A DNA stretch of 64,000 nt. Origin: an uncultured virus (IMG/VR IMGVR_UViG_3300025128_000022). Taxonomy: Duplodnaviria > Heunggongvirae > Uroviricota > Caudoviricetes. Within the stretch, counting starts at the first letter, position 1. Each line of letters begins with the position of its first letter. Shown here piece after piece: positions 48,215 to 64,000 of the stretch. The notes below the pieces were generated by a model that made no database searches, was not told where the DNA came from, and worked only from the letters and a program-made list of their open reading frames with translations. Where the stretch lies: the IMG/VR virus record IMGVR_UViG_3300025128_000022. The stretch is one strand, 5' to 3'. A program made the translations under genes and the position numbers.

Positions 48215-48222
48215 AATTTTAT

Positions 48223-49458: not shown

Positions 49459-49459
49459 A

Positions 49460-50698
49460 CTACAAATTTAAGAAATCTCTTTTGAAGTGTTTTAAAGTAT
49501 AGTCCTTCTTACGAGTCACAGCTTTATAAATTTTATCTTCGATTCCTGCTGAGGTAAACACCCAATATATTTTATTGTGAAGTCTGTTTTTGGTTGTCAT
49601 GCGGTCACGAGATTGCCAATAGGAGGTTGCAGAAAAATCTATATTATAGTAAATCAATGCATCGGCGTTGCGTAAACTAATACCTTCCCTCCCACTAACA
49701 ATCTGCAGAGCTATACTTTTATTTGTCTCATTGAAGACGCTTAGTTCCGTTGAAATGGTCTCCCCATAAACTTCCTTAATTGCATTTAGTTCTTCTTTAA
49801 ACTTATAAAAGATAGCAATTTTTTTATCTGAAAATTTATTTTTAATAAACTCAGCTTTTGTTAAGTCTAACACCATAGAACTACCGCTTTCAAATTTAAC
49901 AGTACCGGAAAAGATTTGGTGTAGCTTTGACATCAGCTTTACAGGTGTGTCGCCCATTATTACCTCATCTTTGCCTTCTACTACTAAATGTTTTTGTAGT
50001 TTTTTAGCAAGACTATAAGTCGCATCTTTCATGCGAACATACAAAATTTCTTCAGTAGTTTGCACTTCAAAACCTGCGTTTTTTTGACTAAAGTTTATGG
50101 TGAAGGGTCGCATCTTATCAAGGATACTCTCATAACCTGCAGAGTAATCTCTTATCTGCAGACCTCCGATTGGTTTTATTTTAACATTTACATAGTCATC
50201 AGAAAACCTATAAAAATTTTTGTAATGAGCAAAAGGATTAGTTGGTATACCATAAACTTGATGATACATTTGACTAAACGATTCAGGAGTTGGTGTGCCT
50301 GACAAAAGAATAACAAAAGGTTTTGTTTTACCAATCAGTTCCTTAACCTGCTTTGCTCTTTTGCTTGGCTTTGGAAACGCACCCATTGAATGAGCTTCGT
50401 CACATATAATAACATCCCATTGAGTATCAGGAATCTTGTGAATGCTTTCGTAATTAATGGTAGTTAAATTGAAAGAAGGATTGAGTAGTTGATAGTCATC
50501 TTCAATACTAGAGATAGCTTTTTTCTTTGTAACAAACAGAACGTTCACCGCTTTTACTCGGTCTGCTATCCCTAAGCTCGTAAGGGTCTTGCCTGTTCGT
50601 ACCTCCATAGCAAGGTAGACAAACCCTCTACTCAATAAGGTTTGACTACCTATGTCTATGATGGTATTTTGATATGGTCTTAACTCTATGACTTCCAA
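49460..50698 (-). CDS. SF2 (SNF2-like) helicase
   Basis: LRPYQ, RTGKT, DEAH, LSGTP, REGISL, QSRDR. Confidence 0.9.
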   Translation of the reverse strand: MEVIELRPYQNTIIDIGSQTLLSRGFVYLAMEVRTGKTLTSLGIADRVKAVNVLFVTKKKAISSIEDDYQLLNPSFNLTTINYESIHKIPDTQWDVIICDEAHSMGAFPKPSKRAKQVKELIGKTKPFVILLSGTPTPESFSQMYHQVYGIPTNPFAHYKNFYRFSDDYVNVKIKPIGGLQIRDYSAGYESILDKMRPFTINFSQKNAGFEVQTTEEILYVRMKDATYSLAKKLQKHLVVEGKDEVIMGDTPVKLMSKLHQIFSGTVKFESGSSMVLDLTKAEFIKNKFSDKKIAIFYKFKEELNAIKEVYGETISTELSVFNETNKSIALQIVSGREGISLRNADALIYYNIDFSATSYWQSRDRMTTKNRLHNKIYWVFTSAGIEDKIYKAVTRKKDYTLKHFKRDFLNL

Positions 50699-50955
50699 GT
50701 TTTTTCAAAGACTCCCTTTGAGTTCATGACCATAGTTAAACGAAAACATTCAGGATACTTTTCTTTTGCTTGTTTCCATGTTACCTCTTGTTCTTTTAGA
50801 ACTTCAAAGTTTCGGACAAGACCGAGGTCATCCCAATAATGTTTTTTGGTTTGATTGCAATAAATGACATCCTTTTTTTCAACGCCACCTCTTGCTTCTT
50901 CGTCTAATTGCGTTTTGTGAAACGCATCGTTTAGAAAATTTTCTAAGTTTTTCAT
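50686..50955 (-). CDS. Hypothetical protein
   Basis: 89 aa ORF with ACATTATG start context. Confidence 0.65.
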   Translation of the reverse strand: MKNLENFLNDAFHKTQLDEEARGGVEKKDVIYCNQTKKHYWDDLGLVRNFEVLKEQEVTWKQAKEKYPECFRLTMVMNSKGVFEKTWKS

Positions 50956-50999
50956 AATGTATTTGATTTAATTAACACAACCATTATTGATTGATTCTA

Positions 51000-51007
51000 C
51001 AAATATA
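51000..51007 (-). promoter_or_regulatory. Bacteroidota -7 element TATATTTG
   Basis: Intergenic; TTTG -33 element about 20 nt upstream. Confidence 0.75.
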
Positions 51008-51045
51008 CGAAAATTAGACGAGAAATCCAAATCCCTTCGTACAGC

Positions 51046-51306
51046 TTAAATTTTTCTATACTTATTTTCTGTCCAAGAATCTAATATTGCTGTGATTTTT
51101 GCACATTTCTCATAGTGTTCAACTTCAGTAAAATATTCTAACATATTTTCTAAAACTTCTTTGTCTACCGGCTGAAGAACATCGTGTACAAATACACCAT
51201 CGTCAGTCCCCATTAAAGAATTATCAAATCGGTCTTCCACTATAACATTGTATGAGTTTATCATAGCATTATATACCATTAGCTCATTGTCTTGCTCTTC
51301 TTTCAT
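51046..51306 (-). CDS. Small protein with UVR (UvrB/C)-like motif
   Basis: EVEHYEKCAKI. Confidence 0.55.
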   Translation of the reverse strand: MKEEQDNELMVYNAMINSYNVIVEDRFDNSLMGTDDGVFVHDVLQPVDKEVLENMLEYFTEVEHYEKCAKITAILDSWTENKYRKI

Positions 51307-53723
51307 ATATCTAATTTACTATTATATTCCAACTCATGTTTGCTTCTAAACCTAATCCACTTTCCTGATGCATCTCTTCCTTCTTCCGGCGGCACACCTT
51401 GTTTAAATACTCCATATGCTGTAAGCCATTTATAAAATCTTGTTCTTGATATAGTCATTTTAGCTTTCGGTCCATAGTCAGGATTCTCTTCGATAAAATT
51501 AAAGTATAAATCTTGTTTACGCAAATGCATATTTGGTTTTAATAAATCATTTGGTTCGTGACCTGTTACTAATCCACACCATTCAATAAAGTCATGGGAT
51601 GTTTCTGCTGACAGCTGTCTCACTTTTAAATTTACAAATACTGATTGAATTAATCCCTTTTCTAAATATAGTTGTAAACAAGATATCATGTAGTTATCAA
51701 ACTCACACCACATATCTTCATCCCAATCTCCAAACATAAGTTTACCAAATTCATCAAAAGGTGTAAAGGTTTTATTATAATATTGATGTAACTCTAACTC
51801 CCATTTTCTTCTTGCAAAAGAATTACCTGCACCCTTAATAGCATAATTAGTTGTGATAGCTATTTTAGGAGACTTGCTAAAAGGAATTTTGATTGCATCT
51901 TTGTTTTTCTTTTCAAGTGTTAAACCCTCCGTAATAAGACTAAATAATCTCTCAAAATCGAAATACTTTTTTACATCATCAAAACATAATATCTGTGTAT
52001 CAGCAGAAACTAGCTGATATGCAAACGACCTTTCAAATGCAAAACTTTTACCATCAATGGTAACTAATTTTTTCATATGAGATAAAGCATTCATAAACAA
52101 GCCCTTACCTGTACCACCTTCAGGGTTGTCGCTTATAACCTCATCATTCAAGATTACAGCCGGACAAAAAGAAAGGTTTTTATAGCCATGCATCATAAAC
52201 CCTATTGTTGACTCCATTGACTTTATTCTGCTTTCGTTTTTTGCACAAATATTTGTTATGAAAGTTTTATAATCACAATTATGCATTCCACATTTTTTAA
52301 AGTCTCTATCAATTACATGGTCTTTCCAAACAAAACCTCCCAAGTCTATATAATCAATAGTAGTTACATTATCCTTTGTGATTTTAACAGCACAATTTTT
52401 ATAATATAAGTAGGATGTATTTTTATTATCAGCAATAAAATATATATTGACTGATGAAAGTAAAGTTAAAAATTCGTCTTTAAAAAACCTTGTATTGTCA
52501 GCAAAGTAATTGTAAATAGAAAGGTCGTCAAGCTCTATCAATCCACTTAATATAAAATCTTTTATTTCTTTTTCAGTAGTATGGTCAATGAGATTGTTTT
52601 GAACTCTTACAAACACATAATTCTTACTACCTTCAGGACAAAATTTATAGAACCCATTGTCTTCCAAGTATTCTTTAAATAAAACATGAACTATCTTTAT
52701 AGTACCCTTATCGTTTTTTACCCAAAAAGTTTGGTTATTGTTAGACTCTTCTGCTTTATTTAAGACTGAATCTATTATCGCTTTATCAAGTTTTGACTCC
52801 TCTAATTGAGTTCTAACTTCTTTTTTTGAAACCCCTCTCCTTAACTTTCCTTTTACTTGATTTACTTTTTCTTCATCCTCATAAAATTTAGTACCAAAGT
52901 TTTGGGATTGAGAATATGCTGAATCTATTGTTCTTTCTATTTCTCTTGTTGTAAAATCTTTAGTGCTAAACTGCCCAAGCACATAGGATGCGAGACTCTT
53001 GTTTACTCCAAAATCATTTAGAGCTGATGCAAGAACATAAGCATTCTGATTTCTTTGTCCTTCCGTCATTGGATATTTTTTACTCCACCATTTAAGTAAA
53101 ATATCTACAATTTTATTCTCATCAGTAATAGGAATTGTTAATGGGTCTTTATTTATATTAACTTCTGTATATTCTTCTTCCTCTATCTTGTCCCAAATTT
53201 TAGAGTTTTTATTTATATGAATGATAGGGTCATAAGACTCATAACAAACTCTTGATAAGTTCTTTGAGGTTACATCAAAGTAGGAGGAGTTAAAATGTTT
53301 TTCTAAAGAATTAAAATACTTTGTATGATTCTCTGCGTCTGCCGGTATCTTTACCAATACTTTTAATCCGTTTCCGGAAGGTGATACAAAGACAGCATAC
53401 ACAAACTTGTTAGAGCTTAACGTCTCCTTGTCAAGCATTAATGATTTAAAATCAGGATATCCATCAAAGTCTAGACATATAATTCCACTATGTAAGATGA
53501 GTGAGTTGTCAGCTCTTTTATTAAATGTACCTGAAAAACAGATAGCCGGTAATTGTTTTTTTAATTCATTCCGGTCTGCCTTTTTCTTTTCCTTTCTTAT
53601 CTTTTGAACCAACTCCTTTGAATCTGAACCTTCTTTGATTCTTTCTAGTATTGTATCTATACCTACATGGTATGGAGTGATGGTTTCTTTAATATTTTTG
53701 AATATAGTTACTTGTTGTGTCAT
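51303..53723 (-). CDS. Primase-helicase (BT4734/VirE N-terminal domain + PriCT + SF3-like ATPase)
   Basis: KKQLPAICFSG, LDFD, SPSGNGLK, EGQRN, GGTGKG, FDD, ITTN. Confidence 0.8.
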   Translation of the reverse strand: MTQQVTIFKNIKETITPYHVGIDTILERIKEGSDSKELVQKIRKEKKKADRNELKKQLPAICFSGTFNKRADNSLILHSGIICLDFDGYPDFKSLMLDKETLSSNKFVYAVFVSPSGNGLKVLVKIPADAENHTKYFNSLEKHFNSSYFDVTSKNLSRVCYESYDPIIHINKNSKIWDKIEEEEYTEVNINKDPLTIPITDENKIVDILLKWWSKKYPMTEGQRNQNAYVLASALNDFGVNKSLASYVLGQFSTKDFTTREIERTIDSAYSQSQNFGTKFYEDEEKVNQVKGKLRRGVSKKEVRTQLEESKLDKAIIDSVLNKAEESNNNQTFWVKNDKGTIKIVHVLFKEYLEDNGFYKFCPEGSKNYVFVRVQNNLIDHTTEKEIKDFILSGLIELDDLSIYNYFADNTRFFKDEFLTLLSSVNIYFIADNKNTSYLYYKNCAVKITKDNVTTIDYIDLGGFVWKDHVIDRDFKKCGMHNCDYKTFITNICAKNESRIKSMESTIGFMMHGYKNLSFCPAVILNDEVISDNPEGGTGKGLFMNALSHMKKLVTIDGKSFAFERSFAYQLVSADTQILCFDDVKKYFDFERLFSLITEGLTLEKKNKDAIKIPFSKSPKIAITTNYAIKGAGNSFARRKWELELHQYYNKTFTPFDEFGKLMFGDWDEDMWCEFDNYMISCLQLYLEKGLIQSVFVNLKVRQLSAETSHDFIEWCGLVTGHEPNDLLKPNMHLRKQDLYFNFIEENPDYGPKAKMTISRTRFYKWLTAYGVFKQGVPPEEGRDASGKWIRFRSKHELEYNSKLDI

Positions 53724-53899
53724 TTTAATGTTGATTTTATGTTGATTTTTTATTTATAACTCGTTGATTATCAGTATCTGTGTTAAAAATGTTATATATA
53801 TTATTACTTAAGGATAAAAAAAATAAAAAAAATATATATAAAAACTATATAGCTCTATATAGAGCTCGAAAATTAACATTTCGACACAAAAAAAAGCAG

Positions 53900-53923
53900 A
53901 AAAAAGGAGGAAAAATCCTCCTT
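53900..53923 (-). terminator. Intrinsic terminator
   Basis: Minus strand AAGGAGGA-tttt-TCCTCCTT + T run. Confidence 0.7.
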
Positions 53924-53944
53924 AATTCTACAAGAATAGCATAG

Positions 53945-54211
53945 TTAGAATGGTAAATCAGTATCAACAGCTTTTGGCTGAGGTGCTGATTTTTCTTCTT
54001 CGGCTTTCACATATGGTGTCTCTACTTTAATACTAATATACTTTTCACCTGATTGAGTAGTTGATACCCAACCGGCTAAAGAATACTGAACTCCGTTAGG
54101 GTCAGCACATCCACCTTTGTAATCAGGATGTGTTTCCTTTTCTTTGTATTGATTTTTAAATAGACTCCCACTCGATGCTTTGTGTACATACTTCTTTTCT
54201 TGGTCTGCCAT
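53945..54211 (-). CDS. Putative ssDNA-binding protein
   Basis: GSLFKN...HPDYKG...LAGW; acidic DLPF tail. Confidence 0.7.
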   Translation of the reverse strand: MADQEKKYVHKASSGSLFKNQYKEKETHPDYKGGCADPNGVQYSLAGWVSTTQSGEKYISIKVETPYVKAEEEKSAPQPKAVDTDLPF

Positions 54212-54380
54212 GATTATTGATTTTAATATTACGTTCCAAATGATTAATTGTTGAGATGATTATATTTGTTTTATCATCAATACTATCAGCAGTCATCGGA
54301 ACTTGAACCCACATAATAGTATTAGGAGGAGTTCTCTTTGGAAGATAACTCCACATTTTTTTAAATGTTTTTTTTAACAT
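54156..54380 (-). CDS. Hypothetical protein
   Basis: 74 aa ORF overlapping neighbours. Confidence 0.5.
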   Translation of the reverse strand: MLKKTFKKMWSYLPKRTPPNTIMWVQVPMTADSIDDKTNIIISTINHLERNIKINNHGRPRKEVCTQSIEWESI

Positions 54381-55101
54381 AATAATTATTTATTTCCTCT
54401 ACCGAAACATTATCATTGGCAAAGAATTGATTATATACTTCTACTGCCTGTTTGACTTTCTCTTCACCTTTAGCTAATGCTAACTCACTTGTTTTAAAAA
54501 CACCACATATCCCAAATCTTTCAGGACTCTTGTCTATTGCTATAAAGATAACAGGTTTTCCAAACAAATGTTGATAGATAAATGCTTGGCTATCATAATT
54601 ATAATAATAACTATTAATATGAAATTTAGAAATATCACTTGTGCTTTTTAAATCAATTACATATTCGTCAGAAATAATATCAGCTTTACCTTTCCATTCT
54701 ACACCAAACAATTCTTTTATTTGAGGTTGTTCATATATATTATTAGGATTTTTAATCATGCTAAAAAGCTCAATGTTTTCAAACAATATATCCACTAGCA
54801 TCTCACACTCATCAGCTTCCTTTTGTAATAATCGTATATTACCATCATTACACGCTTCCTTATAAACTTTCGTGTTACGGCTAGACGCTTCTACTATCTC
54901 AAAGTTTTTTGCCTTCTCCGGCTCTAAAATTAATTGATGAAAGTATCTGCCATATAAAAAATTTTTATTGTCAGGTTGCTCTTGCCTAAATAATTTAGGG
55001 TGTGTGAGGAGCTGATTAATATTTGAGTTAGATAAATAGTTACGACCAATCCCATTATAATATTCGTGGTCGTCTTTTAACTTTTCTATTATATCCATCA
55101 T
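54361..55101 (-). CDS. RecE-like PD-(D/E)xK exonuclease
   Basis: LSNS, GRYFH, KGKADI...IDLKST, YDSQAFIY. Confidence 0.75.
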   Translation of the reverse strand: MMDIIEKLKDDHEYYNGIGRNYLSNSNINQLLTHPKLFRQEQPDNKNFLYGRYFHQLILEPEKAKNFEIVEASSRNTKVYKEACNDGNIRLLQKEADECEMLVDILFENIELFSMIKNPNNIYEQPQIKELFGVEWKGKADIISDEYVIDLKSTSDISKFHINSYYYNYDSQAFIYQHLFGKPVIFIAIDKSPERFGICGVFKTSELALAKGEEKVKQAVEVYNQFFANDNVSVEEINNYYVKKNI

Positions 55102-55652
55102 ACTAGTTCTTTAAAGTTTTTTGCAATAGCAGTAGCATACTCATCGTCAATATGATACATTTTTCTTAACTCTGTACCACACCACTTTAACCCTTTAGAT
55201 TTATTTTTAGCTATAAACTCTAATGCAACAGCATAATTATCTCCAACATTTATAGAGGGTAGTTTGGTTATTTGATTAAAATGAACAGCTTCTTTTTTTG
55301 GAGAGCTATTCAATTTCGCATTTGCTACCTCATCATAGGACGCTACTGAACTATCAAGACCTATGCCTAAATTAGCTAAAGCACGACCCCATGCACTTGT
55401 TTCGCAGTTCTCTACATAAGAGGTTTTATTAATAAAGCTACTTCCTTTTACTTCTTCGGCTAAACCGGTAGCGATTACCTTCCCTTCACTATTAGTAATA
55501 ACAGCTTTTATAAGAATAGAACTATTAGTCTTTTCCACCACTTCTGATAGTAAAGAATAGTCTTTGTAGTTGGCTCTGAAATACTTTAGTCGTTCATGAA
55601 CCTCAACGTAAGGTTTCCCTTTAACGTCAATAGTTTTTAATTTTTTAGTCAT
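55098..55652 (-). CDS. Putative single-strand annealing protein (Sak/Rad52-like)
   Basis: KGKPYVEVHERL, ENCETSAWGRALANLGIG; adjacent to exonuclease and SSB. Confidence 0.65.
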   Translation of the reverse strand: MTKKLKTIDVKGKPYVEVHERLKYFRANYKDYSLLSEVVEKTNSSILIKAVITNSEGKVIATGLAEEVKGSSFINKTSYVENCETSAWGRALANLGIGLDSSVASYDEVANAKLNSSPKKEAVHFNQITKLPSINVGDNYAVALEFIAKNKSKGLKWCGTELRKMYHIDDEYATAIAKNFKELV

Positions 55653-55657
55653 AATAT

Positions 55658-56062
55658 TTATTTAATTTGATTTAATTTTTGTGAAACTTTGGCAAACCTC
55701 TGCATTATTCGTTCTCGATTTGCTTTGAGACTTTGAATATGCTTTGCGTTTTTACGGGAGTTCACTTCATCCCTTATTTTACTTTCAATTATATCTAGCT
55801 TTGACCTATAATTAGATAATGCTAGATTAAATACACCATACCTCCAACCTCCATCGAAAAAAAATTCTAAATCTTTTTCCGGTACAAGAGAATAAAAGTC
55901 TCCACCTTTCGTGGTGTTGTGTATATTTATTTCTCCGGTGTGAGTAATTTTTTCAATACGGATTCCATACAATATATTAGCTTCCATACCATCACCATTT
56001 AAAGATGCTGTGTAGCTATCTTCTTGTGCTTGTTTAAGTATGTCTGTTAGATTGTAACGCAT
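55658..56062 (-). CDS. Hypothetical protein
   Basis: 134 aa ORF. Confidence 0.65.
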   Translation of the reverse strand: MRYNLTDILKQAQEDSYTASLNGDGMEANILYGIRIEKITHTGEINIHNTTKGGDFYSLVPEKDLEFFFDGGWRYGVFNLALSNYRSKLDIIESKIRDEVNSRKNAKHIQSLKANRERIMQRFAKVSQKLNQIK

Positions 56063-56355
56063 TCATCTATACTTTTACAAACAGCTATAAAATCTTTATC
56101 TCTTACCTTATCATCCTCTACTGCATTAATCCCATGAATAATGGATGAATGTCCAATATGGTATCCACTCTCTTTCATAAATTGCTCGATATAAGTTAAC
56201 TTCATAGGTCTTTTTATACACAAAAAATATAACATATGCCTAGCATCAACTACGGCTCTAGTTTTATCTTTTGAAAATAATTTATCTGTTGTAATATTGT
56301 GAACTTCTGCTACCTTTTGAGCATACTTATTGAATATTTCTTTTTTATAATTCAT
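56047..56355 (-). CDS. Stand-alone DnaA domain IV-like HTH protein
   Basis: VAEVHNIT..LFSKDKTRAVVDARHMLYFL...HSSIIHG. Confidence 0.75.
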   Translation of the reverse strand: MNYKKEIFNKYAQKVAEVHNITTDKLFSKDKTRAVVDARHMLYFLCIKRPMKLTYIEQFMKESGYHIGHSSIIHGINAVEDDKVRDKDFIAVCKSIDECVTI

Positions 56356-56379
56356 CTATAATTTAATTTGATTTAAAAA

Positions 56380-56467
56380 TTTAAAGGGGGAGAAACAAAA
56401 ACATTTAATATTATGGAACGCTCTTATACATCCCTCTAGATTAATAATAACAAACTCCCCCTTTAAA
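56380..56467. repeat. Perfect 13-bp inverted repeat enclosing 62 nt
   Basis: TTTAAAGGGGGAG (56380-56392) / CTCCCCCTTTAAA (56455-56467). Confidence 0.85.
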
Positions 56468-56483
56468 CCAACATTATGAACCG

Positions 56484-56491
56484 CAAATATA
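56484..56491 (-). promoter_or_regulatory. Bacteroidota -7 element TATATTTG
   Basis: Intergenic, upstream of recombination/replication operon. Confidence 0.7.
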
Positions 56492-56499
56492 TTCATTGT

Positions 56500-56823
56500 T
56501 TATTTCTTGTGCAAATTTTCACGAGCAATAATTAATAAAATTATGTACCCACACAAGTCAAACAATGTGTCTTCTGTTTTATCCGACAAACCTTTATTAC
56601 TAATCCTAGCTAATTTATCGTCTATCCTTGCAGATAGTCCGTCAATAGCATTAGCTTTGGAAAAAATATTTAGAGGAGTGAGTGCAGAGTTTCCGTATGC
56701 TGTGTTTTTATCTATAAGCATCTTATAAACTTTTGCAGTAACCTCTTTTATTTTGTCGGTGTTTGGATTTATTTTTTCTTTTGTCTTGAGGATTTCTTTA
56801 CCCTCGTTTAAATAGTGGTTCAT
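56500..56823 (-). CDS. DUF1599/Nmad1-like alpha-helical protein
   Basis: KNTAYGNS...RIDDKLARI...EDTLFDLCGY. Confidence 0.75.
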   Translation of the reverse strand: MNHYLNEGKEILKTKEKINPNTDKIKEVTAKVYKMLIDKNTAYGNSALTPLNIFSKANAIDGLSARIDDKLARISNKGLSDKTEDTLFDLCGYIILLIIARENLHKK

Positions 56824-57218
56824 TGATTTGTTGCGTCTTTAATATAGGGAGCAGTAATGTGTCCGGCTATAATGTTATACAAAATTTTCTCACCCTCTGC
56901 TTTAGACAGGCAAGTGTGATAGTTATTATAATACCTGATATAATATTTTTTACCCATTTGTTGCAACAGCATAGAACCTACATACCGATATATATATTCG
57001 GCATCTTTTTCAACCATCAACCCCATATCAATTAATGAGATGTCTCGTTTATAATAATTTGCCATGTAGTTTTTATACTTCATTTTTCTGCCTGTCGCCT
57101 TAAACTTTGTAAGACTCATTGGTTTTTTACCCTCATATTGTTGTATCTTTTGGATATAACTTTTGTTAGGTTTTTTTTGGAGCTTTTCTGTAAGCACCTC
57201 GTGATTTAATATATTCAT
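56820..57218 (-). CDS. Hypothetical protein
   Basis: 132 aa ORF. Confidence 0.6.
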   Translation of the reverse strand: MNILNHEVLTEKLQKKPNKSYIQKIQQYEGKKPMSLTKFKATGRKMKYKNYMANYYKRDISLIDMGLMVEKDAEYIYRYVGSMLLQQMGKKYYIRYYNNYHTCLSKAEGEKILYNIIAGHITAPYIKDATNQ

Positions 57219-57224
57219 AGTTAT

Positions 57225-57407
57225 TTATTTTAATGCATCCGTACTTTTTACCCACCAATGTCCGTTGATGAGTTTCTTTTCAACATCTCCCCAATGATTC
57301 TTTACCTTGTCAGACAGGTGTCTGTTAAGATGAGTTCGGAGCTGTCGATTCTGCTCCTTTTCATTTAGATATAGTTGAAATATCTTTTGGTCTTTTTTTA
57401 TCGCCAT
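57225..57407 (-). CDS. Hypothetical protein
   Basis: 60 aa ORF. Confidence 0.55.
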   Translation of the reverse strand: MAIKKDQKIFQLYLNEKEQNRQLRTHLNRHLSDKVKNHWGDVEKKLINGHWWVKSTDALK

Positions 57408-57558
57408 TTTTATTTAATTTTTTATGGTCAACAAAACGCTTTCTGTGATTCACCTTTCCACTATATTTAAAGTAATGGTTTAGGTCAATCACATTGCGTT
57501 GTTGCACCTTGTTTGTCTCCTGTTGTAAACGGAGAAATTTAATTATATGTTTGGTCAT
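57361..57558 (-). CDS. Hypothetical protein
   Basis: 65 aa ORF. Confidence 0.55.
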   Translation of the reverse strand: MTKHIIKFLRLQQETNKVQQRNVIDLNHYFKYSGKVNHRKRFVDHKKLNKNGDKKRPKDISTISK

Positions 57559-57653
57559 AGGTTACTACGAATCCAAAGGTATATCAAACACAATATTGCA
57601 CCGATGAATGATACAAAGGTAGCAATATATTTGTCTCTCATTTTATTACTCAT
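57555..57653 (-). CDS. Small membrane peptide (32 aa), not in ORF track
   Basis: MSNKMRDKYIATFVSFIGAILCLIYLWIRSNL; overlaps both neighbours. Confidence 0.5.
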   Translation of the reverse strand: MSNKMRDKYIATFVSFIGAILCLIYLWIRSNL

Positions 57654-57858
57654 AATTTATTTTTATTTTAAATCGGTCAATCAGCATCAGCTCTATCTCA
57701 TCATACTTTTCGTTAAAAAAATCTTGTGCATGTTCTGTATAGCTAAAGCAATCAGACTCTTTATCATGCACCCAAGTTGCTTCACCAAATCTTTCAGTAG
57801 TAATTAGACAAGCAACCTCGCATACCACTTCCTTAAATACTTCGTTAGATATTCCCAT
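57646..57858 (-). CDS. Hypothetical protein
   Basis: 70 aa acidic ORF. Confidence 0.65.
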   Translation of the reverse strand: MGISNEVFKEVVCEVACLITTERFGEATWVHDKESDCFSYTEHAQDFFNEKYDEIELMLIDRFKIKINYE

Positions 57859-57860
57859 AG

Positions 57861-58037
57861 TTATTTTTTATAATGTTCTCTATATAAATCGGCTCTGTAT
57901 GATATTTCACTACTACTTATTAATACATTAGTATCGTTATTTACTTCTATATAGACACTCGTTTTGTCGGTGTCTGCCCACGCTACTATATCGTTCATTT
58001 CAAACCATCTAATAGCATCTTTTGTTTCCTCTATCAT
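57861..58037 (-). CDS. Hypothetical protein (MIEETKDA..., 58 aa), not in ORF track
   Basis: Read from sequence; AACTATG start context. Confidence 0.6.
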   Translation of the reverse strand: MIEETKDAIRWFEMNDIVAWADTDKTSVYIEVNNDTNVLISSSEISYRADLYREHYKK

Positions 58038-58043
58038 AGTTAT

Positions 58044-58211
58044 TTATTTATTTCCTAATACTTTATCAATTACTCTTTCAGCATCTTCACACCCCTCCAC
58101 CATTTTACTATCAGCATAATCAAAGAGCGTGTCGTTATGGTCTTCAAGCAACGCCACTTTTGTTTGCAACGCTCTTACTTGTTCGTGTAAAAAATCTATT
58201 GTTTCTTGCAT
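58044..58211 (-). CDS. Hypothetical coiled-coil protein (MQETIDFL..., 55 aa), not in ORF track
   Basis: Read from sequence; AT-rich leader. Confidence 0.6.
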   Translation of the reverse strand: MQETIDFLHEQVRALQTKVALLEDHNDTLFDYADSKMVEGCEDAERVIDKVLGNK

Positions 58212-58349
58212 TTATATTTAATTTTAAATTAATAATAATAGGCAGAGAGTAGGGCTACGTTAAACAACTGCGTGGGTTAGCTCTCTTTTAAAAGTTCCAC
58301 TCCTTTACTTACCTAATTTTATTTGTAACCCTGTGTTACAGGTGTTACA

Positions 58350-58706
58350 TTAATCAATCAGTTCTATATCAGAGATTTCAATCTCATCTTCCTCGCTATC
58401 CTCATCTACTAGCCAAGCCGGAAGAGTATCTCTCTCTTCAAAGATATTGTCTAATGTGTAGCTGATTTCATTGTGGTCAATGAGTTCTTGAATAAATACA
58501 TTCCCCCAATACTTAAGGTCATCATAATCGGAGAACATCCACTCTGCAAACCTTTTGCGAGTAATTGTGTATCTCTTTTTTGAATGTGATTTTGTTACAT
58601 GCTCTTCTACTTTCTTTAAGTAGTCGTTCCAAGTATAAGGGATGTCTCCCAATAATTCTCTGTGTCTCTTTTTTTGCTCTAGACCGAGCCACCTTTTTTC
58701 TCTCAT
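58350..58706 (-). CDS. Hypothetical early protein
   Basis: 118 aa, acidic tail. Confidence 0.65.
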   Translation of the reverse strand: MREKRWLGLEQKKRHRELLGDIPYTWNDYLKKVEEHVTKSHSKKRYTITRKRFAEWMFSDYDDLKYWGNVFIQELIDHNEISYTLDNIFEERDTLPAWLVDEDSEEDEIEISDIELID

Positions 58707-58960
58707 AATTTTCTTGATTTTAGTTTATAATTATCTTCAGCTACGTCTTTAAGAACTCCCCATATATGTTCTATTGTACAGGGATGTTCCATTACCTCAA
58801 CAAGTAACTCCATAGCTGTATCTGAATCCGTATCATACAATTCTTGTACGTCAAATACATTCCATAAGTTAGCTGTTTGGTAGCCGTTTCTTTCAAGGAT
58901 TACTTTAGCATCGTGTATCCTCTCGTAGCTAGATTCATACTTTTTAAAAGTGTGTTCCAT
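58703..58960 (-). CDS. Hypothetical early protein
   Basis: 85 aa ORF. Confidence 0.65.
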   Translation of the reverse strand: MEHTFKKYESSYERIHDAKVILERNGYQTANLWNVFDVQELYDTDSDTAMELLVEVMEHPCTIEHIWGVLKDVAEDNYKLKSRKL

Positions 58961-58970
58961 AGTTTTTGAT

Positions 58971-59522
58971 TTAGTTATTAATTACTCTTACTCTTTTCGC
59001 ATTCCCCTCGCCTTGTTCAATAGAAAAGATATCGCCATATACTTCTAACGTCTTATCCAATACATCAAAAGCTCGATATACTTTTATGATTGTCGACTTC
59101 TCTTCAATCCATTCTTTTTCTTCACCATTACGCACCCTAATCGTTTGGAGGTGTGCAGTTATGACTCCGGCATCTTCAACATCCTCACCACTAAATCTTA
59201 TCTTACCTTTAAGATAAATTCCTTTAGGTTGGAGAAAGTCAGAGACTATAAACTTAAGCCAATTAACATATTGATAAAACTTTTCAGCTCCGTTCCACGC
59301 TAAACAATGAATGTCGGTTATGCCGTGTTCAACATCGTCAATGATTTCCCATTTATTATATATTGATGGAGCTTTCTCTAGACCTCCTCGATAGTCGCCG
59401 GAGTATTCACCTGTGGTGTCGTGCCTGTCGTTTAGCCAAACTTGATTATACTCATCAAGTTCATCTTGTGTTAACCTTCTTGATAATGCCATCAGTCCGG
59501 TAAAATTGGTTGTGTAACCCAT
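58971..59522 (-). CDS. Conserved phage hypothetical protein
   Basis: MGYTTNFTG...WNGAEKFY...GEDVEDAG. Confidence 0.7.
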   Translation of the reverse strand: MGYTTNFTGLMALSRRLTQDELDEYNQVWLNDRHDTTGEYSGDYRGGLEKAPSIYNKWEIIDDVEHGITDIHCLAWNGAEKFYQYVNWLKFIVSDFLQPKGIYLKGKIRFSGEDVEDAGVITAHLQTIRVRNGEEKEWIEEKSTIIKVYRAFDVLDKTLEVYGDIFSIEQGEGNAKRVRVINN

Positions 59523-59554
59523 AATGTTTAATATTTAATTATAATTTAATTTAG

Positions 59555-59583
59555 TGAACACTTTGAAATCTTGTTCAGGATTT
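59555..59583 (-). ncRNA. Recurring H-type pseudoknot motif (copy A)
   Basis: AAAUC-CUGAACAA-GAUUU-CAAAG-UGUUCA; loop UGAACA pairs with UGUUCA. Confidence 0.6.
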
Positions 59584-59586
59584 TAG

Positions 59587-59705
59587 AAAGCAGACGAGGA
59601 ATCGAACCTCTATATTAATAACCTAACGTCTTGTGTCAAATTGATAAGGGAGTTATGAGTCTCCTTATCTAAAACCACTTCCGAGCACCTTGCTATCATC
59701 TGCTT
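59587..59705 (-). ncRNA. tRNA-like RNA (acceptor stem + T arm, enlarged centre)
   Basis: 5' AAGCAGA pairs with 3' UCUGCUU; GAGG-UUCGAUU-CCUC T arm; own promoter. Confidence 0.55.
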
Positions 59706-59713
59706 AACATTTG

Positions 59714-59721
59714 CAATAATA
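59714..59721 (-). promoter_or_regulatory. Bacteroidota promoter (TATTATTG, TTTG 20 nt upstream)
   Basis: One mismatch to TAnnTTTG with correctly spaced -33. Confidence 0.6.
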
Positions 59722-59763
59722 CGAATTAATAAATTAATAAACAAATTTTAGACGAACTTTTTT

Positions 59764-60477
59764 TTATTGCTCCGGTTTATAATCCGGATTTGGAGCGTTG
59801 TCAGTCGTCAAAACTTGTAGCATAATGGCATCCACAAATTGCTGTAAGATGTGTCCATACTTCTCATCAAAGCTATGGTCTTCTCTCCAATTATTTAGCC
59901 ACCTTTTAAATTCTCGTAGCATAATTGTATTGGTCATAAATCTATCCATCCAATTAAGCATATCTTGATAGTAACGAGTTACTATATACTCCTCGTGAAT
60001 GGTGCAGTTGCCACCACAATAGGAGCAGTCTTCAGCTATCTCCTCAATCTCGCCATCGTCATCTTCCTCTTCGTAATACTCCCAACCACTACCACCACAC
60101 TCACAACAATCCTGAAATACTTCCTCGATGACATTGCAATTGCCATTATTATAATAGTCGTAGTAGAATCTACTAGCAATACGAATCAGCTCTCCATTAA
60201 TGGTTTCGGCTTCAGCAGATTTTGGTACTAGTTTTTTATAAAGCTCATCATACTCTTTTTGATAAGCACCCTCATTGTTCCAATAGGTTTTTCCTAAAGG
60301 TGTTGATTTGCCGTGATGTTCAGCTGTCTTTTCCATCCATTTGCACCAATCGGCTAAAGTTTGTCGAGCATCAATTTTGCTCATACCGAATCTTTTGATT
60401 AGGTAGGGTGTCGCACCGAACATATTCGTCTCGCCGGACATCTGCAATTCGCAGAGATAATTAAAATGTGTGTTCAT
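59764..60477 (-). CDS. Early protein with CxxCxGxG zinc-finger motifs
   Basis: CCECGGSG and CSYCGGNC; N-terminal SGETNMFGA module. Confidence 0.7.
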   Translation of the reverse strand: MNTHFNYLCELQMSGETNMFGATPYLIKRFGMSKIDARQTLADWCKWMEKTAEHHGKSTPLGKTYWNNEGAYQKEYDELYKKLVPKSAEAETINGELIRIASRFYYDYYNNGNCNVIEEVFQDCCECGGSGWEYYEEEDDDGEIEEIAEDCSYCGGNCTIHEEYIVTRYYQDMLNWMDRFMTNTIMLREFKRWLNNWREDHSFDEKYGHILQQFVDAIMLQVLTTDNAPNPDYKPEQ

Positions 60478-60502
60478 AATGTTTACATTTTTATTTAATA
60501 AA

Positions 60503-60553
60503 TCCGTTTCATCCTTTCGGAATCATCAGGTGTGATACACATCACACTACGGA
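60503..60553 (-). ncRNA. Type III hammerhead ribozyme HH1
   Basis: UCC-GUA^-GUGUGA[UGUGUA]UCACAC-CUGAUGA-UUCC[GAAA]GGAU-GAAA-CGGA. Confidence 0.92.
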
Positions 60554-60576
60554 GGGGTAATGAACCCCCCTGTGTA

Positions 60577-60819
60577 TTAACTCACTCTCTCATATTCGTC
60601 AAGCCACTCATTAATGTCGTCTTCGTCTAACCAATAGTTAGTAAATTCGTTACCTTCTAAAATCAATTCTTTGGCTATGTCCATCATCCCATATTTATCA
60701 TAGAATAATTCTGAATCAGGGTCTTCAATTTCTGTCTGACCTATTTCGTGTAGCCAACCTATTTCATAACCATCATTGGTTGGTAGGTAGTCAAACACAT
60801 AGTGTTTAAGTTTTTTCAT
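60577..60819 (-). CDS. Acidic hypothetical early protein
   Basis: 80 aa; AACATTATG start. Confidence 0.7.
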   Translation of the reverse strand: MKKLKHYVFDYLPTNDGYEIGWLHEIGQTEIEDPDSELFYDKYGMMDIAKELILEGNEFTNYWLDEDDINEWLDEYERVS

Positions 60820-60843
60820 AATGTTATTATTATATTATTAAAT

Positions 60844-60892
60844 CTGTTTCATCTTTTTAGAATCATCAGCGATAGCACACACTATCGAACAG
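60844..60892 (-). ncRNA. Type III hammerhead ribozyme HH2
   Basis: CU-GUU^-CGAUAG[UGUGUG]CUAUCG-CUGAUGA-UUCU[AAAA]AGAU-GAAA-CAG. Confidence 0.88.
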
Positions 60893-60919
60893 GAGCAGTT
60901 TTAAATCGTACTCAGGATT
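60893..60919 (-). ncRNA. Recurring H-type pseudoknot motif (copy B)
   Basis: AAUC-CUGAGUAC-GAUU-UAAAAC-UGCUC; GAGUA pairs with UGCUC. Confidence 0.6.
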
Positions 60920-60931
60920 GTCTGACTGCGT

Positions 60932-61339
60932 CTACTCTATGCAGTATCCGTCATCATCGACCTTAATCTCGTGGCTGTCAGAGTGTCCGTTGACTAGCTC
61001 TGCGAGGGTTTCATTGTCGATATCATCAATCATATCATCGGTTAAAATATCGGATGAGATAGTGGTATTAAAAAGCATACCATCCTCAAACATACTTTGA
61101 ACCTCTGACATCATCTCATATTCATCGGTGAACAGCTCATCGCAAGGGTAATAAGCTCCCTTATCTGCGTCTCTTCTGTCGGTGATTATGTAGATGTCAA
61201 ATCCATCTTTTGAGGTTTCCAAAAGGATGTGAATCTCTGCTCCTGATTCATAAGGGGTTTCGATTACACTTCCAAATACATCTGTTAGGATGGACTCGAT
61301 ACCCATCTCTCTTAATTCAGTTATTGTTAATTTCTCCAT
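60932..61339 (-). CDS. Highly acidic hypothetical early protein
   Basis: 135 aa, D/E-rich. Confidence 0.7.
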   Translation of the reverse strand: MEKLTITELREMGIESILTDVFGSVIETPYESGAEIHILLETSKDGFDIYIITDRRDADKGAYYPCDELFTDEYEMMSEVQSMFEDGMLFNTTISSDILTDDMIDDIDNETLAELVNGHSDSHEIKVDDDGYCIE

Positions 61340-61340
61340 T

Positions 61341-61574
61341 TTAGTTTTTGTTTAAGTTAGACATTCTTTCTTTGTGTTCTGCGTACAATAGGGACACTAT
61401 AAGGAACGAACAAAATCCGTATAGACATACACAACCCAACCACACAATAACGCCGGTAAACGAGCCAATATCGGTTTTTAGGATGTGAATGAATAGACTC
61501 CCACATAAAGCTATTATCGGCAAACAAACTAATGCATAGATAATAGACTCTGAATAAATTAAAACTTTTTTCAT
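61341..61574 (-). CDS. Small membrane protein (2 TM)
   Basis: Two hydrophobic helices; AACATTATG start. Confidence 0.7.
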   Translation of the reverse strand: MKKVLIYSESIIYALVCLPIIALCGSLFIHILKTDIGSFTGVIVWLGCVCLYGFCSFLIVSLLYAEHKERMSNLNKN

Positions 61575-61600
61575 AATGTTATAAAGTTAAATTAATATTT

Positions 61601-61649
61601 CTGTTTCGTTCTTTTGAACTCATCAGGCAAGGCACACACCTTGCGACAG
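61601..61649 (-). ncRNA. Type III hammerhead ribozyme HH3
   Basis: CU-GUC^-GCAAGG[UGUGUG]CCUUGC-CUGAUGA-GUUC[AAAA]GAAC-GAAA-CAG; canonical core. Confidence 0.95.
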
Positions 61650-61672
61650 GGGAGCGGTCAGCTCCCTGTGGT

Positions 61673-61921
61673 CTACTTATCTTCAAGCGTTACGACTGCA
61701 TCCGGCTTTGATTTTGTCAGAACCTTGTGCATCTTGTTGAAGGTGTTCAGTTTTGAAACTACTTTCATCAATGCTCTAAACTGATTGGTATTCAGGTCTA
61801 ATTGCCCAAGCTCGATGGTCTTTAGTTGCGTAATCGTGTTGTCTAATTCATCAGCGTTGAACTCAACCTGTACCGGCTCACTATACTTGTAGCTGTTAAA
61901 ATACTTGTCATTCGTTTTCAT
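61673..61921 (-). CDS. Hypothetical early protein
   Basis: 82 aa; AACATTATG start. Confidence 0.7.
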   Translation of the reverse strand: MKTNDKYFNSYKYSEPVQVEFNADELDNTITQLKTIELGQLDLNTNQFRALMKVVSKLNTFNKMHKVLTKSKPDAVVTLEDK

Positions 61922-61950
61922 AATGTTTGTTGTTTAAGTTAGTAATATTT

Positions 61951-62175
61951 TTATCTTTCTTCGTACTCTTTAAAATCTATGCCAATAGATTCGCATAAAA
62001 ATTTCTCTTCAAACCAAAAAAGGTCGTTTATTTCGCTCTCGGTTGGTGGCTTTTCGTGATATAAATCCTCAATCGCAAATTGAATTTCTTTTAATTCATT
62101 ATAAGTAAATTCGTGTTGCTTTGCTCCGCTCCAAAATTTAAAGCTCGTTAAATCTAAATCTTTAGTGTAATACAT
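61951..62175 (-). CDS. Hypothetical early protein (MYYTKDLDL...)
   Basis: Start reassigned to ATG 62175 (AACATTATG); track start 62232 lies inside HH4. Confidence 0.7.
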   Translation of the reverse strand: MYYTKDLDLTSFKFWSGAKQHEFTYNELKEIQFAIEDLYHEKPPTESEINDLFWFEEKFLCESIGIDFKEYEER

Positions 62176-62198
62176 AATGTTTGTTATTAAATTTATAA

Positions 62199-62247
62199 TC
62201 TGTTTCTGCTTTCGCTTCTTCAGGTAAGGCACACACCTTACGACAGA
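62199..62247 (-). ncRNA. Type III hammerhead ribozyme HH4
   Basis: UCU-GUC^-GUAAGG[UGUGUG]CCUUAC-CUGAAGA-AGC[GAAA]GCA-GAAA-CAGA; short stem II. Confidence 0.82.
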
Positions 62248-62277
62248 GAACCTTTTTATCTCGACTTGTTCAGGTCG
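62248..62277 (-). ncRNA. Recurring H-type pseudoknot motif (copy C)
   Basis: CGAC-CUGAACAA-GUCG-AGAUAAAAAG-GUUC; GAAC pairs with GUUC. Confidence 0.6.
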
Positions 62278-62283
62278 GTTTGG

Positions 62284-62346
62284 TTATACTAAAACAATCT
62301 CAAACTCTTGAGAAATGTCTTGTATTGCTATATCATATGCATTCAT
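62284..62346 (-). CDS. Possible 20-aa peptide MNAYDIAIQDISQEFEIVLV
   Basis: ATG with A-rich leader; fills gap before pseudoknot C/HH4. Confidence 0.4.
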   Translation of the reverse strand: MNAYDIAIQDISQEFEIVLV

Positions 62347-62367
62347 AATTTTTGGTTTTATTGGTTA

Positions 62368-62952
62368 TTAAATTCTTTCGATTAATTCTTCTTGCTCTTC
62401 GTACTCATAAAGACAATGATTTATAATCATATCATCACACTTGAAGAGCTTCGCATCTGTGTAACCTCCTCTGACGTCAGCTCCGTTGTGTATCTGTAAC
62501 AACAAGTAAGATTCGCCGTTAATCTCTAGCCATCCACCTTGAAGAGTTTGAGAGAGGTCACTCTCTGCGTTGTAGGTGTTGAAGGTTCTGCCCTCAACGA
62601 CTTCGTTGCCCTCTTTTAAATCGTCCCACGCTTCGAGAGATACTCCCCACGCTTCAGAGTCGCCGTTCCAATCTGTTGCACCTGATTGAATTTCATTAAA
62701 GTTGTTGCAGATATAATCTAGCTCTAGAGCTGAATCTTCACCGGCTAAAAAATGGAAGACTGATACTTCTCTCTGTATCCAATCAGATGAATCTTTTTCT
62801 ATGGTTTCAGGTTGGTCATTCTCGAAATCTGTCAGACTGCGTTTTTGGTTTCTCTGCCAATGTCTCCCGTCAGTCATACCGGAATCTAGCATGTGTTTAC
62901 CTGTTGACTCTGTCAACATTTCGTAAATTAATTGTTTTAAATCTGTGTTCAT
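62368..62952 (-). CDS. First early gene, conserved phage hypothetical protein
   Basis: ESTGKHMLDSG...GRHWQRNQ, FNTYN, QIHNGADVRGGYT. Confidence 0.75.
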   Translation of the reverse strand: MNTDLKQLIYEMLTESTGKHMLDSGMTDGRHWQRNQKRSLTDFENDQPETIEKDSSDWIQREVSVFHFLAGEDSALELDYICNNFNEIQSGATDWNGDSEAWGVSLEAWDDLKEGNEVVEGRTFNTYNAESDLSQTLQGGWLEINGESYLLLQIHNGADVRGGYTDAKLFKCDDMIINHCLYEYEEQEELIERI

Positions 62953-62993
62953 TTTAGTAAAATTTAAGTGCCTTTCGGCTGTTAATAATACAG

Positions 62994-63001
62994 CAAAGAT
63001 A
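62994..63001 (-). promoter_or_regulatory. Bacteroidota -7 element TATCTTTG heading the early operon
   Basis: CAAAGATA on + strand, 41 nt upstream of ATG 62952. Confidence 0.75.
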
Positions 63002-63447
63002 TAAACTTTTTTTTAATTCTCGTATAATTTTAGTTTTATTTTCGTTTAATTTTATTTACTTTATGTTAATAACTATGTAAAGCGTTGATAATGAGCAAGT
63101 TATATGTTGATAATTCACGCAGATTTATTTAATCTTTTTTGATTGGGTTCGGTTGCTCTCTTTATTCTTTGTCTATCTGTTACAAATAATAAATAAATGG
63201 GGGAAGGTATGGAGGGAATCGAGGGGGTTGTGTGGTGTGGTATAAGGGAAGGAGGGGAGGAGGTCAACAGGAGGACAGGACACCGGACAAATTTTGTAAA
63301 AAATCCGAAAGAAAAAAACAAAATCAATAAGGGGGGTCAAAAATAAATTTGACTTTTTTTTTGCGGCACACAAACGCATAACGGGGGGGAGTCTAAACAG
63401 TACATATAACTAAATAAAATTTTTGTATCTTTACAAAAAAAATTATC

Positions 63448-63684
63448 ATGGGCAAACCTTATAAACAATTACAAAGAGATGGAAAGATTTCAAACTTTGT
63501 AGACGGTCTGTATATGCAGAACGGAAGAGAAAAGAATGCAAGACCGGATGGAATGACAGGTATTGCTCAAGCTGCAATGTATAGACAGCAAATGAAAAAG
63601 CAATATAAAATAGATTGTATCGCTGATGGAATAGAGAGGGCTAAAATGAGAATGGATGGCGATAAAGATATATATGAGTTTTAG
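63448..63684 (+). CDS. Hypothetical protein
   Basis: 78 aa; TATCTTTA promoter-like element at 63426; terminator downstream. Confidence 0.7.
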   Translation: MGKPYKQLQRDGKISNFVDGLYMQNGREKNARPDGMTGIAQAAMYRQQMKKQYKIDCIADGIERAKMRMDGDKDIYEF

Positions 63685-63710
63685 TTGAAGATGAGTATGT
63701 GTGTTGATTG

Positions 63711-63741
63711 AAAGGGGGATTCTTAGGAGTCCCTTTTTTTT
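63711..63741 (+). terminator. Intrinsic terminator
   Basis: GGGATTC-ttag-GAGTCCC + T run. Confidence 0.75.
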
Positions 63742-63954
63742 ATGTCGTTATTTAACAAAGTTGTGTTGATTTTGTGTTGATTTTAAAATTGATAATTAAT
63801 TATAAATCAATAGTTTATAAAATATAATGTTGAAATGTTGATTTGAAAAAGGAACTGTAGTGAGAAAAAAACATATGCGTTAAATAGAAAAGAGAGAGAG
63901 AGTATAGTGAGCAATTAAAATCAGCATAACAGCATAAAGTATAAATAGTTTTTA

Positions 63955-63962
63955 TATCTTTG
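63955..63962 (+). promoter_or_regulatory. Bacteroidota -7 element TATCTTTG
   Basis: Followed by AT-rich leader running off the window end. Confidence 0.65.
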
Positions 63963-64000
63963 CTTAAATTAAATACACTATAAATGAATCCAATTAAAAT

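Follow-up and report, generated by a model that had tools for sequence, protein, structure and literature searches.

Four type III hammerhead motifs among small minus-strand genes of an uncultured tailed phage, and their candidate role in self-processing of an early RNA

Hammerhead motifs at the head of the minus-strand gene arm

The DNA considered here is a stretch of 64,000 nucleotides from the uncultured virus IMGVR_UViG_3300025128_000022 (below, the window, that is, the whole stretch analyzed). Matches to the PHROGs database identify it as most of a tailed-phage genome, with a plus-strand arm of terminase, portal, structural, and tail-fibre genes and a minus-strand arm (46857-63379) that holds primase/helicase, helicase, and exonuclease genes. 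Four elements, A to D, are located at the head of this replication-gene arm, amid small genes without an assigned function (Table 1). The analysis of their sequences strongly supports the assignment of all four as genuine type III hammerhead ribozyme motifs of the minus strand. The copies span 1.75 kb, are intergenic, lie on the coding strand, and stand ∼20 nt before start codons. The genes that bear them are presumably early, judging from their position.

In each copy, the parts follow one another in the same order: a stem III strand, U16.1, a nucleotide 17 other than G, stem I, CUGANGA, stem II, GAAA, and the stem III partner. Stems I and II are closed by loops and stem III is open. The core reads CUGAUGA in B, C, and D and CUGAAGA in A, whereas U16.1 and a GAAA followed by C are found in all four; nucleotide 17 is C, C, U, and A in A, B, C, and D, respectively. 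The triplet at the predicted cut reads G/U-U-H. Stem I consists of 6 bp and can be extended to 7 by a U-G or U-A pair around the GUGU loop. Positions 10.1 and 11.1, at the base of stem II, form a G-C pair in B, which is followed by the stem GUUC/GAAC and an AAAA loop, and are A.A in A, where just two further stem II pairs carry a GAAA loop. The original prediction, made from the letters of the window, had placed four hammerheads of complete type III architecture on the minus strand, and all parts were located where it had put them. The cuts that it proposed (62242/1, 61645/4, 60888/7, and 60548/7) agree with the positions of nucleotide 17, and its distances of 66, 70, 68, and 70 nt from the first nucleotide of the product to the ATG (62175, 61574, 60819, and 60477) are exact. 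Its description of the architecture as complete holds for the catalytic core, but a Watson-Crick pair at 10.1-11.1 exists in B alone, and stem III is merely 4 to 5 bp long.

The pattern TGTGTR-N6-CTGANGA-N8-14-GAAAC matches the window four times and gave no match in any of 100 dinucleotide shuffles. A looser pattern, CTGANGA-N8-20-GAAAC, found the same four, against a shuffle mean of 0.39. When the window copies were compared over 16 pairs, 92.1% of the cells were paired, versus 30 to 48% with the partners slid. Stem I varies between the copies and stays paired, as had been predicted: it is 100% paired in the window, with changes on both sides in 6 of 7 pairs.

Table 1. Features of the region, listed in minus-strand order
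Feature	Coordinates	Strand	Description
Candidate promoter	62994-63001	(-)	TATCTTTG, TAnnTTTG match, 42 nt before ATG 62952
Punctuated genes, whole run	62952-59764	(-)	Genes listed below with A to D between them
Gene	62952-62368	(-)	194 aa
Small open reading frame		(-)	20 codons, before A
Hairpin at A	62261-62278	(-)	Weaker, 7 pairs (3 G-C), 11 nt upstream; 43-nt piece −4.7 kcal/mol
Hammerhead A	62249-62196	(-)	Type III; cut after C62242; stem I GUAAGG/CCUUAC
Leader after A	62175-62195	(-)	Same type as leader after D (alignment)
Gene	62175-61951	(-)	74 aa
Gene	61921-61673	(-)	82 aa
Hairpin at B	61650-61666	(-)	GGGAGC-UGACC-GCUCCC, directly abuts stem III; −12.9 kcal/mol (43-nt piece)
Hammerhead B	61652-61597	(-)	Type III; cut after C61645; stem I GCAAGG/CCUUGC
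Leader after B	61574-61596	(-)	Same type as leader after D (alignment)
Gene	61574-61341	(-)	77 aa
Gene	61339-60932	(-)	135 aa
Helix at C	60893-60913	(-)	Weak, 5 bp GAGUA/UGCUC, long loop, abuts C; −6.8 kcal/mol
Hammerhead C	60895-60840	(-)	Type III; cut after U60888; stem I CGAUAG/CUAUCG; 10.1/11.1 = U.U
Leader after C	60819-60839	(-)	Same type as leader after D (alignment)
Gene	60819-60577	(-)	80 aa
Hairpin at D	60552-60570	(-)	GGGGGG-UUCAUUA-CCCCUC, abuts stem III with 2-nt overlap; −13.3 kcal/mol
Hammerhead D	60555-60500	(-)	Type III; cut after A60548; stem I GUGUGA/UCACAC; 10.1/11.1 = U.U
Leader after D	60477-60499	(-)	A/U-rich, ends in AACAUUAUG, without Shine-Dalgarno
Gene	60477-59764	(-)	237 aa

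A hammerhead subfamily in viral contigs

A covariance model built from the four window copies (R1; its calibration was shortened, so that its E-values are rough) matched in the window just A, B, C, and D, with 70.5, 80.1, 77.6, and 79.0 bits, respectively; the next match scored 12.9 bits. At least 122 stretches in IMG/VR matched the pattern when it was scanned, and the analysis was made on the 80 loci listed together with locus L001 (81 loci). In these, R1 gave 130 matches, of which 109 were distinct. The matches were aligned by fitting to the R1 model, which favours the structure, and in this alignment 95.7% of the pair cells were paired, versus 26 to 43% for slid partners. Cells with changes on both sides numbered 519, against 147 in shuffles, and 13 of the 16 pairs change both sides. 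Among the distinct relatives, 99.7% of stem I is paired, and most of its positions take each of the four Watson-Crick pair types. CUGANGA, GAAA, and U16.1 are invariant in all 109, and nucleotide 17 is C in 69, A in 32, U in 8, and never G. Loop II is RAAA in most relatives. For the matches used for seeding, loop I was fixed by the search pattern, which partly forces its conservation, while the stems, stem II, loop II, and nucleotide 17 were free. Taken from the sequences, this is strong evidence for a real, selected hammerhead subfamily. It is best read as a widespread phage subfamily with a stem I of 6 to 7 bp capped by (U)GUGU(R), a short stem II capped by RAAA, and an open stem III of 4 to 5 bp.

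The placement of the hammerheads with respect to genes is also shared. An ATG-initiated open reading frame (ORF) of at least 35 aa starts 5 to 36 nt after the ribozyme in 98 of 121 unique modules, and an ORF of at least 35 aa ends 10 to 70 nt before it in 92 of the 121. All copies lie on one strand in each of the 31 multicopy loci. Five whole records of 43 to 65 kb hold three to five copies each, on one strand and within 1.65 to 4.5 kb. Related phages, in which the original prediction had proposed to look for the same placement, do have hammerheads clustered on one strand ahead of genes. Hammerheads at A, B, and C are kept in the nearest relative with a full record (65,006 bases; its proteins are 76 to 84% identical). 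Locus L125 has an ortholog of A with an identical stem II, an ortholog of B, and an ortholog of C (C′) with G-C at 10.1/11.1, C17, and nearly the same stem I as C of the window. An identical copy of D is present in G001 (locus L127), the nearest record, which overlaps the window at 60300-60816 only.

Positions 10.1 and 11.1 take three states in the 109 distinct sequences, namely, G-C in 59, U.U in 36, and A.A in 14, and nothing else was observed. These states are distributed unevenly over nucleotide 17 (chi-square of 97, not corrected for shared descent). Sequences with G-C have C17 in 57 cases, A17 in 2, and U17 in none; those with U.U have A17 in 30, U17 in 6, and C17 in none; and those with A.A have C17 in 12, U17 in 2, and A17 in none. 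Hammerhead C of the window (U.U, U17) and its ortholog C′ (G-C, C17) differ in both features, with stem I almost the same. No paper on this link was found in a literature coverage that is incomplete and mostly leaves subscription journals outside.

The inner part of stem II is fully paired in the U.U variants (108 of 108 cells) and in the A.A variants (31 of 31 cells), and the operon of the window holds all three core states. The U10.1-U11.1 mismatch is a published active variant, according to passages of PMC3088659, which supports activity of such copies, and N7 of G10.1 is described as a metal ligand in passages of PMC7151607.

Searches with the Rfam models had a mixed outcome. No match at the gathering thresholds was obtained across the whole window. 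The gathering score of the type III hammerhead family, RF00008, is 48.5 bits; below it, this model matched B with 37.7 bits (E of 7.5e-6), D with 28.7 bits (E of 0.0027), and C with 16.8 bits (E of 0.15, in a search of 76 nt), whereas A matched none of the Rfam hammerhead models even in a 76-nt search. Standard Rfam annotation would therefore miss all four copies. An Rfam scan by E-value of positions 46800-64000 gave no other ribozyme class. At least 122 viral contigs match one narrow pattern. The threshold misses a whole abundant phage subfamily, and ribozyme counts in viromes that are based on gathering scores are consequently too low. With RF00008, the window copies share the full core, the three-way junction, the looped stems I and II, the open stem III, and a predicted cleavage after GUH; they differ from it in their scores under the gathering score and in the non-Watson-Crick 10.1/11.1 of three of the four copies.

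A GC-rich hairpin abuts stem III in most members of the subfamily. The 43 nt ending at the cut have a median minimum free energy of −15.5 kcal/mol, with 75% at −8 kcal/mol or below, in the 120 unique modules with enough upstream sequence. The controls gave −5.1 kcal/mol and 22% for pieces taken at random from these loci and −6.6 kcal/mol and 35% for shuffles. The hairpin is present in 98 of the 120 modules, and in 85 of these 98 it ends 0 to 2 nt from the first invariant pair of stem III. The hairpin sequences are diverse, which indicates that the structure is what is kept. Variants of the hairpin at D with changed arms occur in G001 and in one metagenome contig, and the ...AAACUGCUCCUGU motif of the helix at C was read also before the hammerheads of L125, L031, L035, and L068. 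The hairpin may serve as a cap for the new 3′ end of the upstream mRNA, and perhaps it also stacks on the short stem III. Classical terminators were considered for the abutting hairpins and ruled out, since no T-run follows them.

Self-processing of a minus-strand RNA and alternative explanations

From the motifs and their arrangement, we consider it likely that active type III hammerheads self-process one polycistronic early RNA of the minus strand, and we infer transcription, cleavage, and effects on stability and translation as follows. The RNA would start upstream of 62952 and continue across the small genes with which the replication-gene arm begins. Each ribozyme would fold as it is made and cut after nucleotide 17, and the pieces between the cuts would measure 597, 757, and 340 nt and carry two, two, and one genes, in addition to the flanking parts. 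The shortness of stem III would let the products part, making the cut irreversible. The upstream piece would end in a 2′,3′-cyclic phosphate with a hairpin a few nucleotides before it, which would hinder 3′ exonucleases. The downstream piece would begin with a 5′-OH base-paired in stem I; behind stem II, a free A/U-rich leader would extend for ∼20 nt to the start codon. Such a 5′ structure may hinder 5′-end-dependent decay and keep upstream sequence from interfering with translation initiation.

The original prediction of an early RNA that cuts itself into mRNAs of one or two genes is consistent with the one-strand layout and its likeness in relatives, but the promoter that it named at 62994 is a one-box match only. 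TAnnTTTG, which we take to be the −7 promoter box of Bacteroidota, is indeed present at 63001-62994, but there is no −33 TTTG. The spacers of the window that contain hammerheads are free of TAnnTTTG boxes, which fits cotranscription without proving it. A two-box Bacteroidota promoter pattern was found 9 times against 6.3 expected, never near 62994, and a sigma-70-like scan gave no excess (19 versus 18.5 in shuffles). Terminator-like structures numbered 3 against 2.4 in shuffles, and no T-rich terminator was found on the minus strand of the hammerhead region.

The idea of self-processing was presented in the original prediction as highly novel, but the processing of long phage transcripts into gene-length mRNAs was proposed in 2011 by Perreault et al. 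(passages of PMC3088659). According to the same passages, multiple hammerheads flank genes in prophage genomes of Clostridium scindens, Azorhizobium caulinodans, and Agrobacterium tumefaciens; three of these clusters cleave in vitro, and one does so in E. coli. The window is thus a good new example of a known arrangement, and the basic picture of 2011 is unchanged. As in the clusters of Perreault et al., several hammerheads of one polarity stand between single genes or short blocks (here two, two, and one genes), and the passages describe the U10.1-U11.1 mismatch and weak stems II and III there as well. In contrast to those prophages, the window belongs to a lytic-looking uncultured marine phage of ∼65 kb with Bacteroidota-style leaders, and its copies are all of one sequence subfamily (GUGU in loop I, RAAA in loop II). 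The passages of PMC3088659 do not contain "terminator" and use "hairpin" in other senses only. The role of bacterial and phage hammerheads is described as still largely elusive in a 2019 review (PMC6765202). Later work on the function of phage hammerheads was not found beyond the papers cited here, in a search that mostly did not cover subscription journals.

The analogy with bacteriophage T7 drawn in the original prediction is apt and gains strength from the hairpin expected near the 3′ end of the upstream product. RNase III processes the polycistronic early mRNA of T7 at intergenic sites, leaving upstream products with a terminal hairpin and downstream products with a defined 5′ end. The arrangement proposed here would resemble it in its intergenic cuts, hairpin-ended upstream products, and defined downstream 5′ ends. 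It would differ in that the RNA cuts itself without a host enzyme, within a three-way junction instead of the long duplex of T7, and in the 5′-OH and 2′,3′-cyclic phosphate ends that are expected in place of 5′-phosphate and 3′-OH. RiboJ, a synthetic insulator, is made from a plant satellite ribozyme with an extra hairpin after the ribozyme. Like RiboJ, a hammerhead just before a ribosome-binding leader would trim variable upstream RNA and provide a standard structured 5′ end; unlike RiboJ, the element is natural and its extra hairpin precedes the ribozyme. The window and its relatives offer a compact natural test system, with four ribozymes in 1.75 kb and three core variants together, as well as a relative that lacks one ribozyme-bounded gene and has another block exchanged. 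The abutting hairpin and the rule linking 10.1/11.1 to nucleotide 17 would inform ribozyme design.

Several observations weigh against self-processing. Every copy scores under the RF00008 gathering score, A without any match, and the G10.1-C11.1 pair is absent from three of the four. Copy A combines A.A, for which no activity data were found, with a short stem II. In all four 130-nt contexts, the hammerhead fold lies 0.2 to 4.4 kcal/mol above the predicted minimum-energy fold, with energy models that leave tertiary contacts out. A strong abutting hairpin is present at B and D alone, those of A and C being weak, and the candidate promoter has a single box. The sequencing-run search found no RNA runs with the region, a result that is uninformative on expression. 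As relatives show, these genes can clearly dispense with the ribozymes: no hammerhead precedes the 80-aa gene in G001; in L125, three genes between A′ and B′ stand on a leader of the AACAUUAUG type with no ribozyme; and the region of a Polaribacter phage that shares the 74-aa gene has no hammerhead.

The modules also coincide with breaks in homology between phages. When the window was compared with two relatives over 59.5 to 63.4 kb, all five homology breakpoints fell inside hammerhead modules (62173, 61670, 60815/60816, and 60529). In L125 (5807-6549), other genes stand in place of those between A and B, and the 80-aa gene and D are absent; L127 (1-757) was also compared. An all-against-all comparison of the 80 listed hammerhead loci placed 65 internal breakpoints in modules, with 23.4 expected; observed-to-expected ratios were 2.78 for modules, 1.16 for other noncoding sequence, and 0.79 for coding sequence. 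Breakpoints were taken, in 15-nt bins, from high-scoring segment pairs that spanned at least 300 nt at 70% identity or more and ended no closer than 100 nt to a locus end; the counts are non-independent, the loci were chosen for having hammerheads, and the ORF labels are crude. Many metagenome contigs from four DNA runs match the hammerhead cores only and then diverge. These comparisons suggest that the modules double as gene-cassette junctions.

Such junctions could be the main function of the hairpin-hammerhead-leader modules, which would then act chiefly at the DNA level, as short conserved sites for the exchange of early-gene cassettes between related phages by homologous recombination, with cleavage secondary or left over. 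The promoter-stem-loop repeats of T4-type phages have a similar recombination-junction role, and the location of all five window breakpoints in modules, the 2.78-fold enrichment, and the contigs that share the cores alone agree with it. Recombination, however, needs identity, yet the stems vary freely without losing their pairing (stem I is 99.7% paired) and no catalytic nucleotide varies, which argues for selection on the RNA. Given also the non-independence of the breakpoint counts, their origin in hammerhead-selected loci, and the fact that both roles can coexist, a mainly DNA-level function seems quite unlikely. Graded or conditional cleavage, with three core states that differ in their cutting rates or ion requirements and so set the relative amounts or the timing of the early proteins, would refine self-processing and is not an alternative to cleavage. 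It would account for the presence of all three core states in one operon and for the covariation of 10.1/11.1 with nucleotide 17, and the N7 of G10.1 is a metal ligand in passages of PMC7151607. This association rests on counts uncorrected for shared descent, and no ligand-binding or switching element was seen; we regard such regulation as unlikely.

Ligation of the 5′-OH and cyclic-phosphate ends left by neighbouring cuts, giving circular or spliced RNAs of one or two genes, was raised by Perreault et al., who could detect neither product according to the passages of PMC3088659. The window does have gene blocks flanked by two ribozymes that would leave ligatable ends, but release of the products is the likelier outcome given the shortness of stem III and the hairpin next to it upstream, and nothing in the window pointed to an RNA ligase, for which no aimed search was made; we regard this outcome as very improbable. 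It is more improbable still, to the point of being hardly credible, that the motifs match a hammerhead by chance or survive as dead relics with no function today. The scores under the Rfam threshold and the three copies without a canonical 10.1-11.1 pair speak for this. They stand against the absence of matches in 100 shuffles, compensatory changes throughout, orthologs kept in a relative with flanks just ∼80% identical, and an inner stem II that is fully paired in all U.U and A.A variants.

Self-processing may be one side of a broader arrangement, which we propose tentatively and regard as possible though rather doubtful. In this arrangement, a portable cassette of hairpin, hammerhead, and leader (∼20 nt) would serve as an early-gene plug-in junction and crossover point in many unrelated marine phages, together with a coupling between 10.1/11.1 and nucleotide 17 in the active site. 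If this is true, the cassette would, at the RNA level, give the upstream neighbour a protected 3′ end and the inserted gene a standard insulated 5′ end, and at the DNA level its conserved core would be the crossover point for cassette swaps. The three-state rule at 10.1/11.1 would then reflect an unrecognized structural coupling in the hammerhead active site.

Leaders, neighbouring genes, and other features

The leaders between the window ribozymes and the start codons are alike, and AACATTATG is invariant in all four when they are aligned. Across the subfamily, some leaders carry GGAGG and others are A-rich, so that the subfamily may span phages with Shine-Dalgarno and with A-rich leaders and, with them, different host groups. 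For the window itself, the AACAUUAUG leaders without Shine-Dalgarno, the GC content of 34%, and the relatives among Polaribacter phages suggest a Flavobacteriia-type host. The sole match to GenBank phages is a piece of 250 nt at 72% to Polaribacter phages P12002S/L, and the P12002S region holds no hammerhead, its best score being 8.7 bits. In the sequencing-run search, the stretch was present in DNA contigs of marine metagenomes.

The genes between the ribozymes obtained no function from PHROGs or Pfam (no Pfam family above the cut-off). Among the punctuated genes, PHROG matches were limited to phrog_11344 and phrog_5149, neither of which has an assigned function. PHROGs were also scanned with 53, mostly the longer ones, of the 105 unique proteins whose genes directly follow hammerheads in other contigs; 44 of the 53 had no match, and names were obtained for two ATPases, an anti-restriction protein, and a porphyrin-biosynthesis/ATPase. 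The anti-restriction protein (phrog_7245) and the two ATPases (phrog_1297) lie at L031 3061-3996, L059 3605-4657, and L039 2068-3087. An anti-restriction gene after a hammerhead recalls the ardA link reported in 2011.

A tRNA-like piece lies at ∼59702-59588; its acceptor-like helix of 7 bp is GCAGAUG/CGUCUGC, and its T-loop is GGUUCGAUUCC. ARAGORN at default settings found no tRNA there, and Rfam gave only a tRNA-Sec match of 15.2 bits (E of 1.9). The piece may be what is left of a tRNA, or it may provide the operon with another kind of processing signal. The gap of 241 nt after the 237-aa gene (59523-59763, minus strand), in which the piece lies, is 93% identical to L125, and the flanking genes are ∼80% identical. 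Another GGUUCGAUUCC T-loop-like motif was observed in L127 (G001) at ∼200-300, upstream of its early genes, where it replaces the hammerhead C region of the window.

The structural arm is closed by an ORF of 2937 aa (38057-46870, plus strand) with no PHROG, credible Pfam, or solved-structure match; its size is presumably like that of the giant proteins packaged in the virions of other phages. Near the start of the window (184-930, plus strand), an ORF of 248 aa matches phrog_5725, a phage GroEL-like chaperonin, with an E of 9e-52, and aligns to the C-terminal half only (291-536 of 540). This may be a truncated or split gene, or the start of the window may interrupt it. On the minus strand, the spacer after the helicase gene contains a hairpin (50598-50667) with a sub-threshold match to the microRNA precursor model mir-71 (28.4 bits, E of 0.029), which is almost certainly no more than a stable intergenic hairpin.

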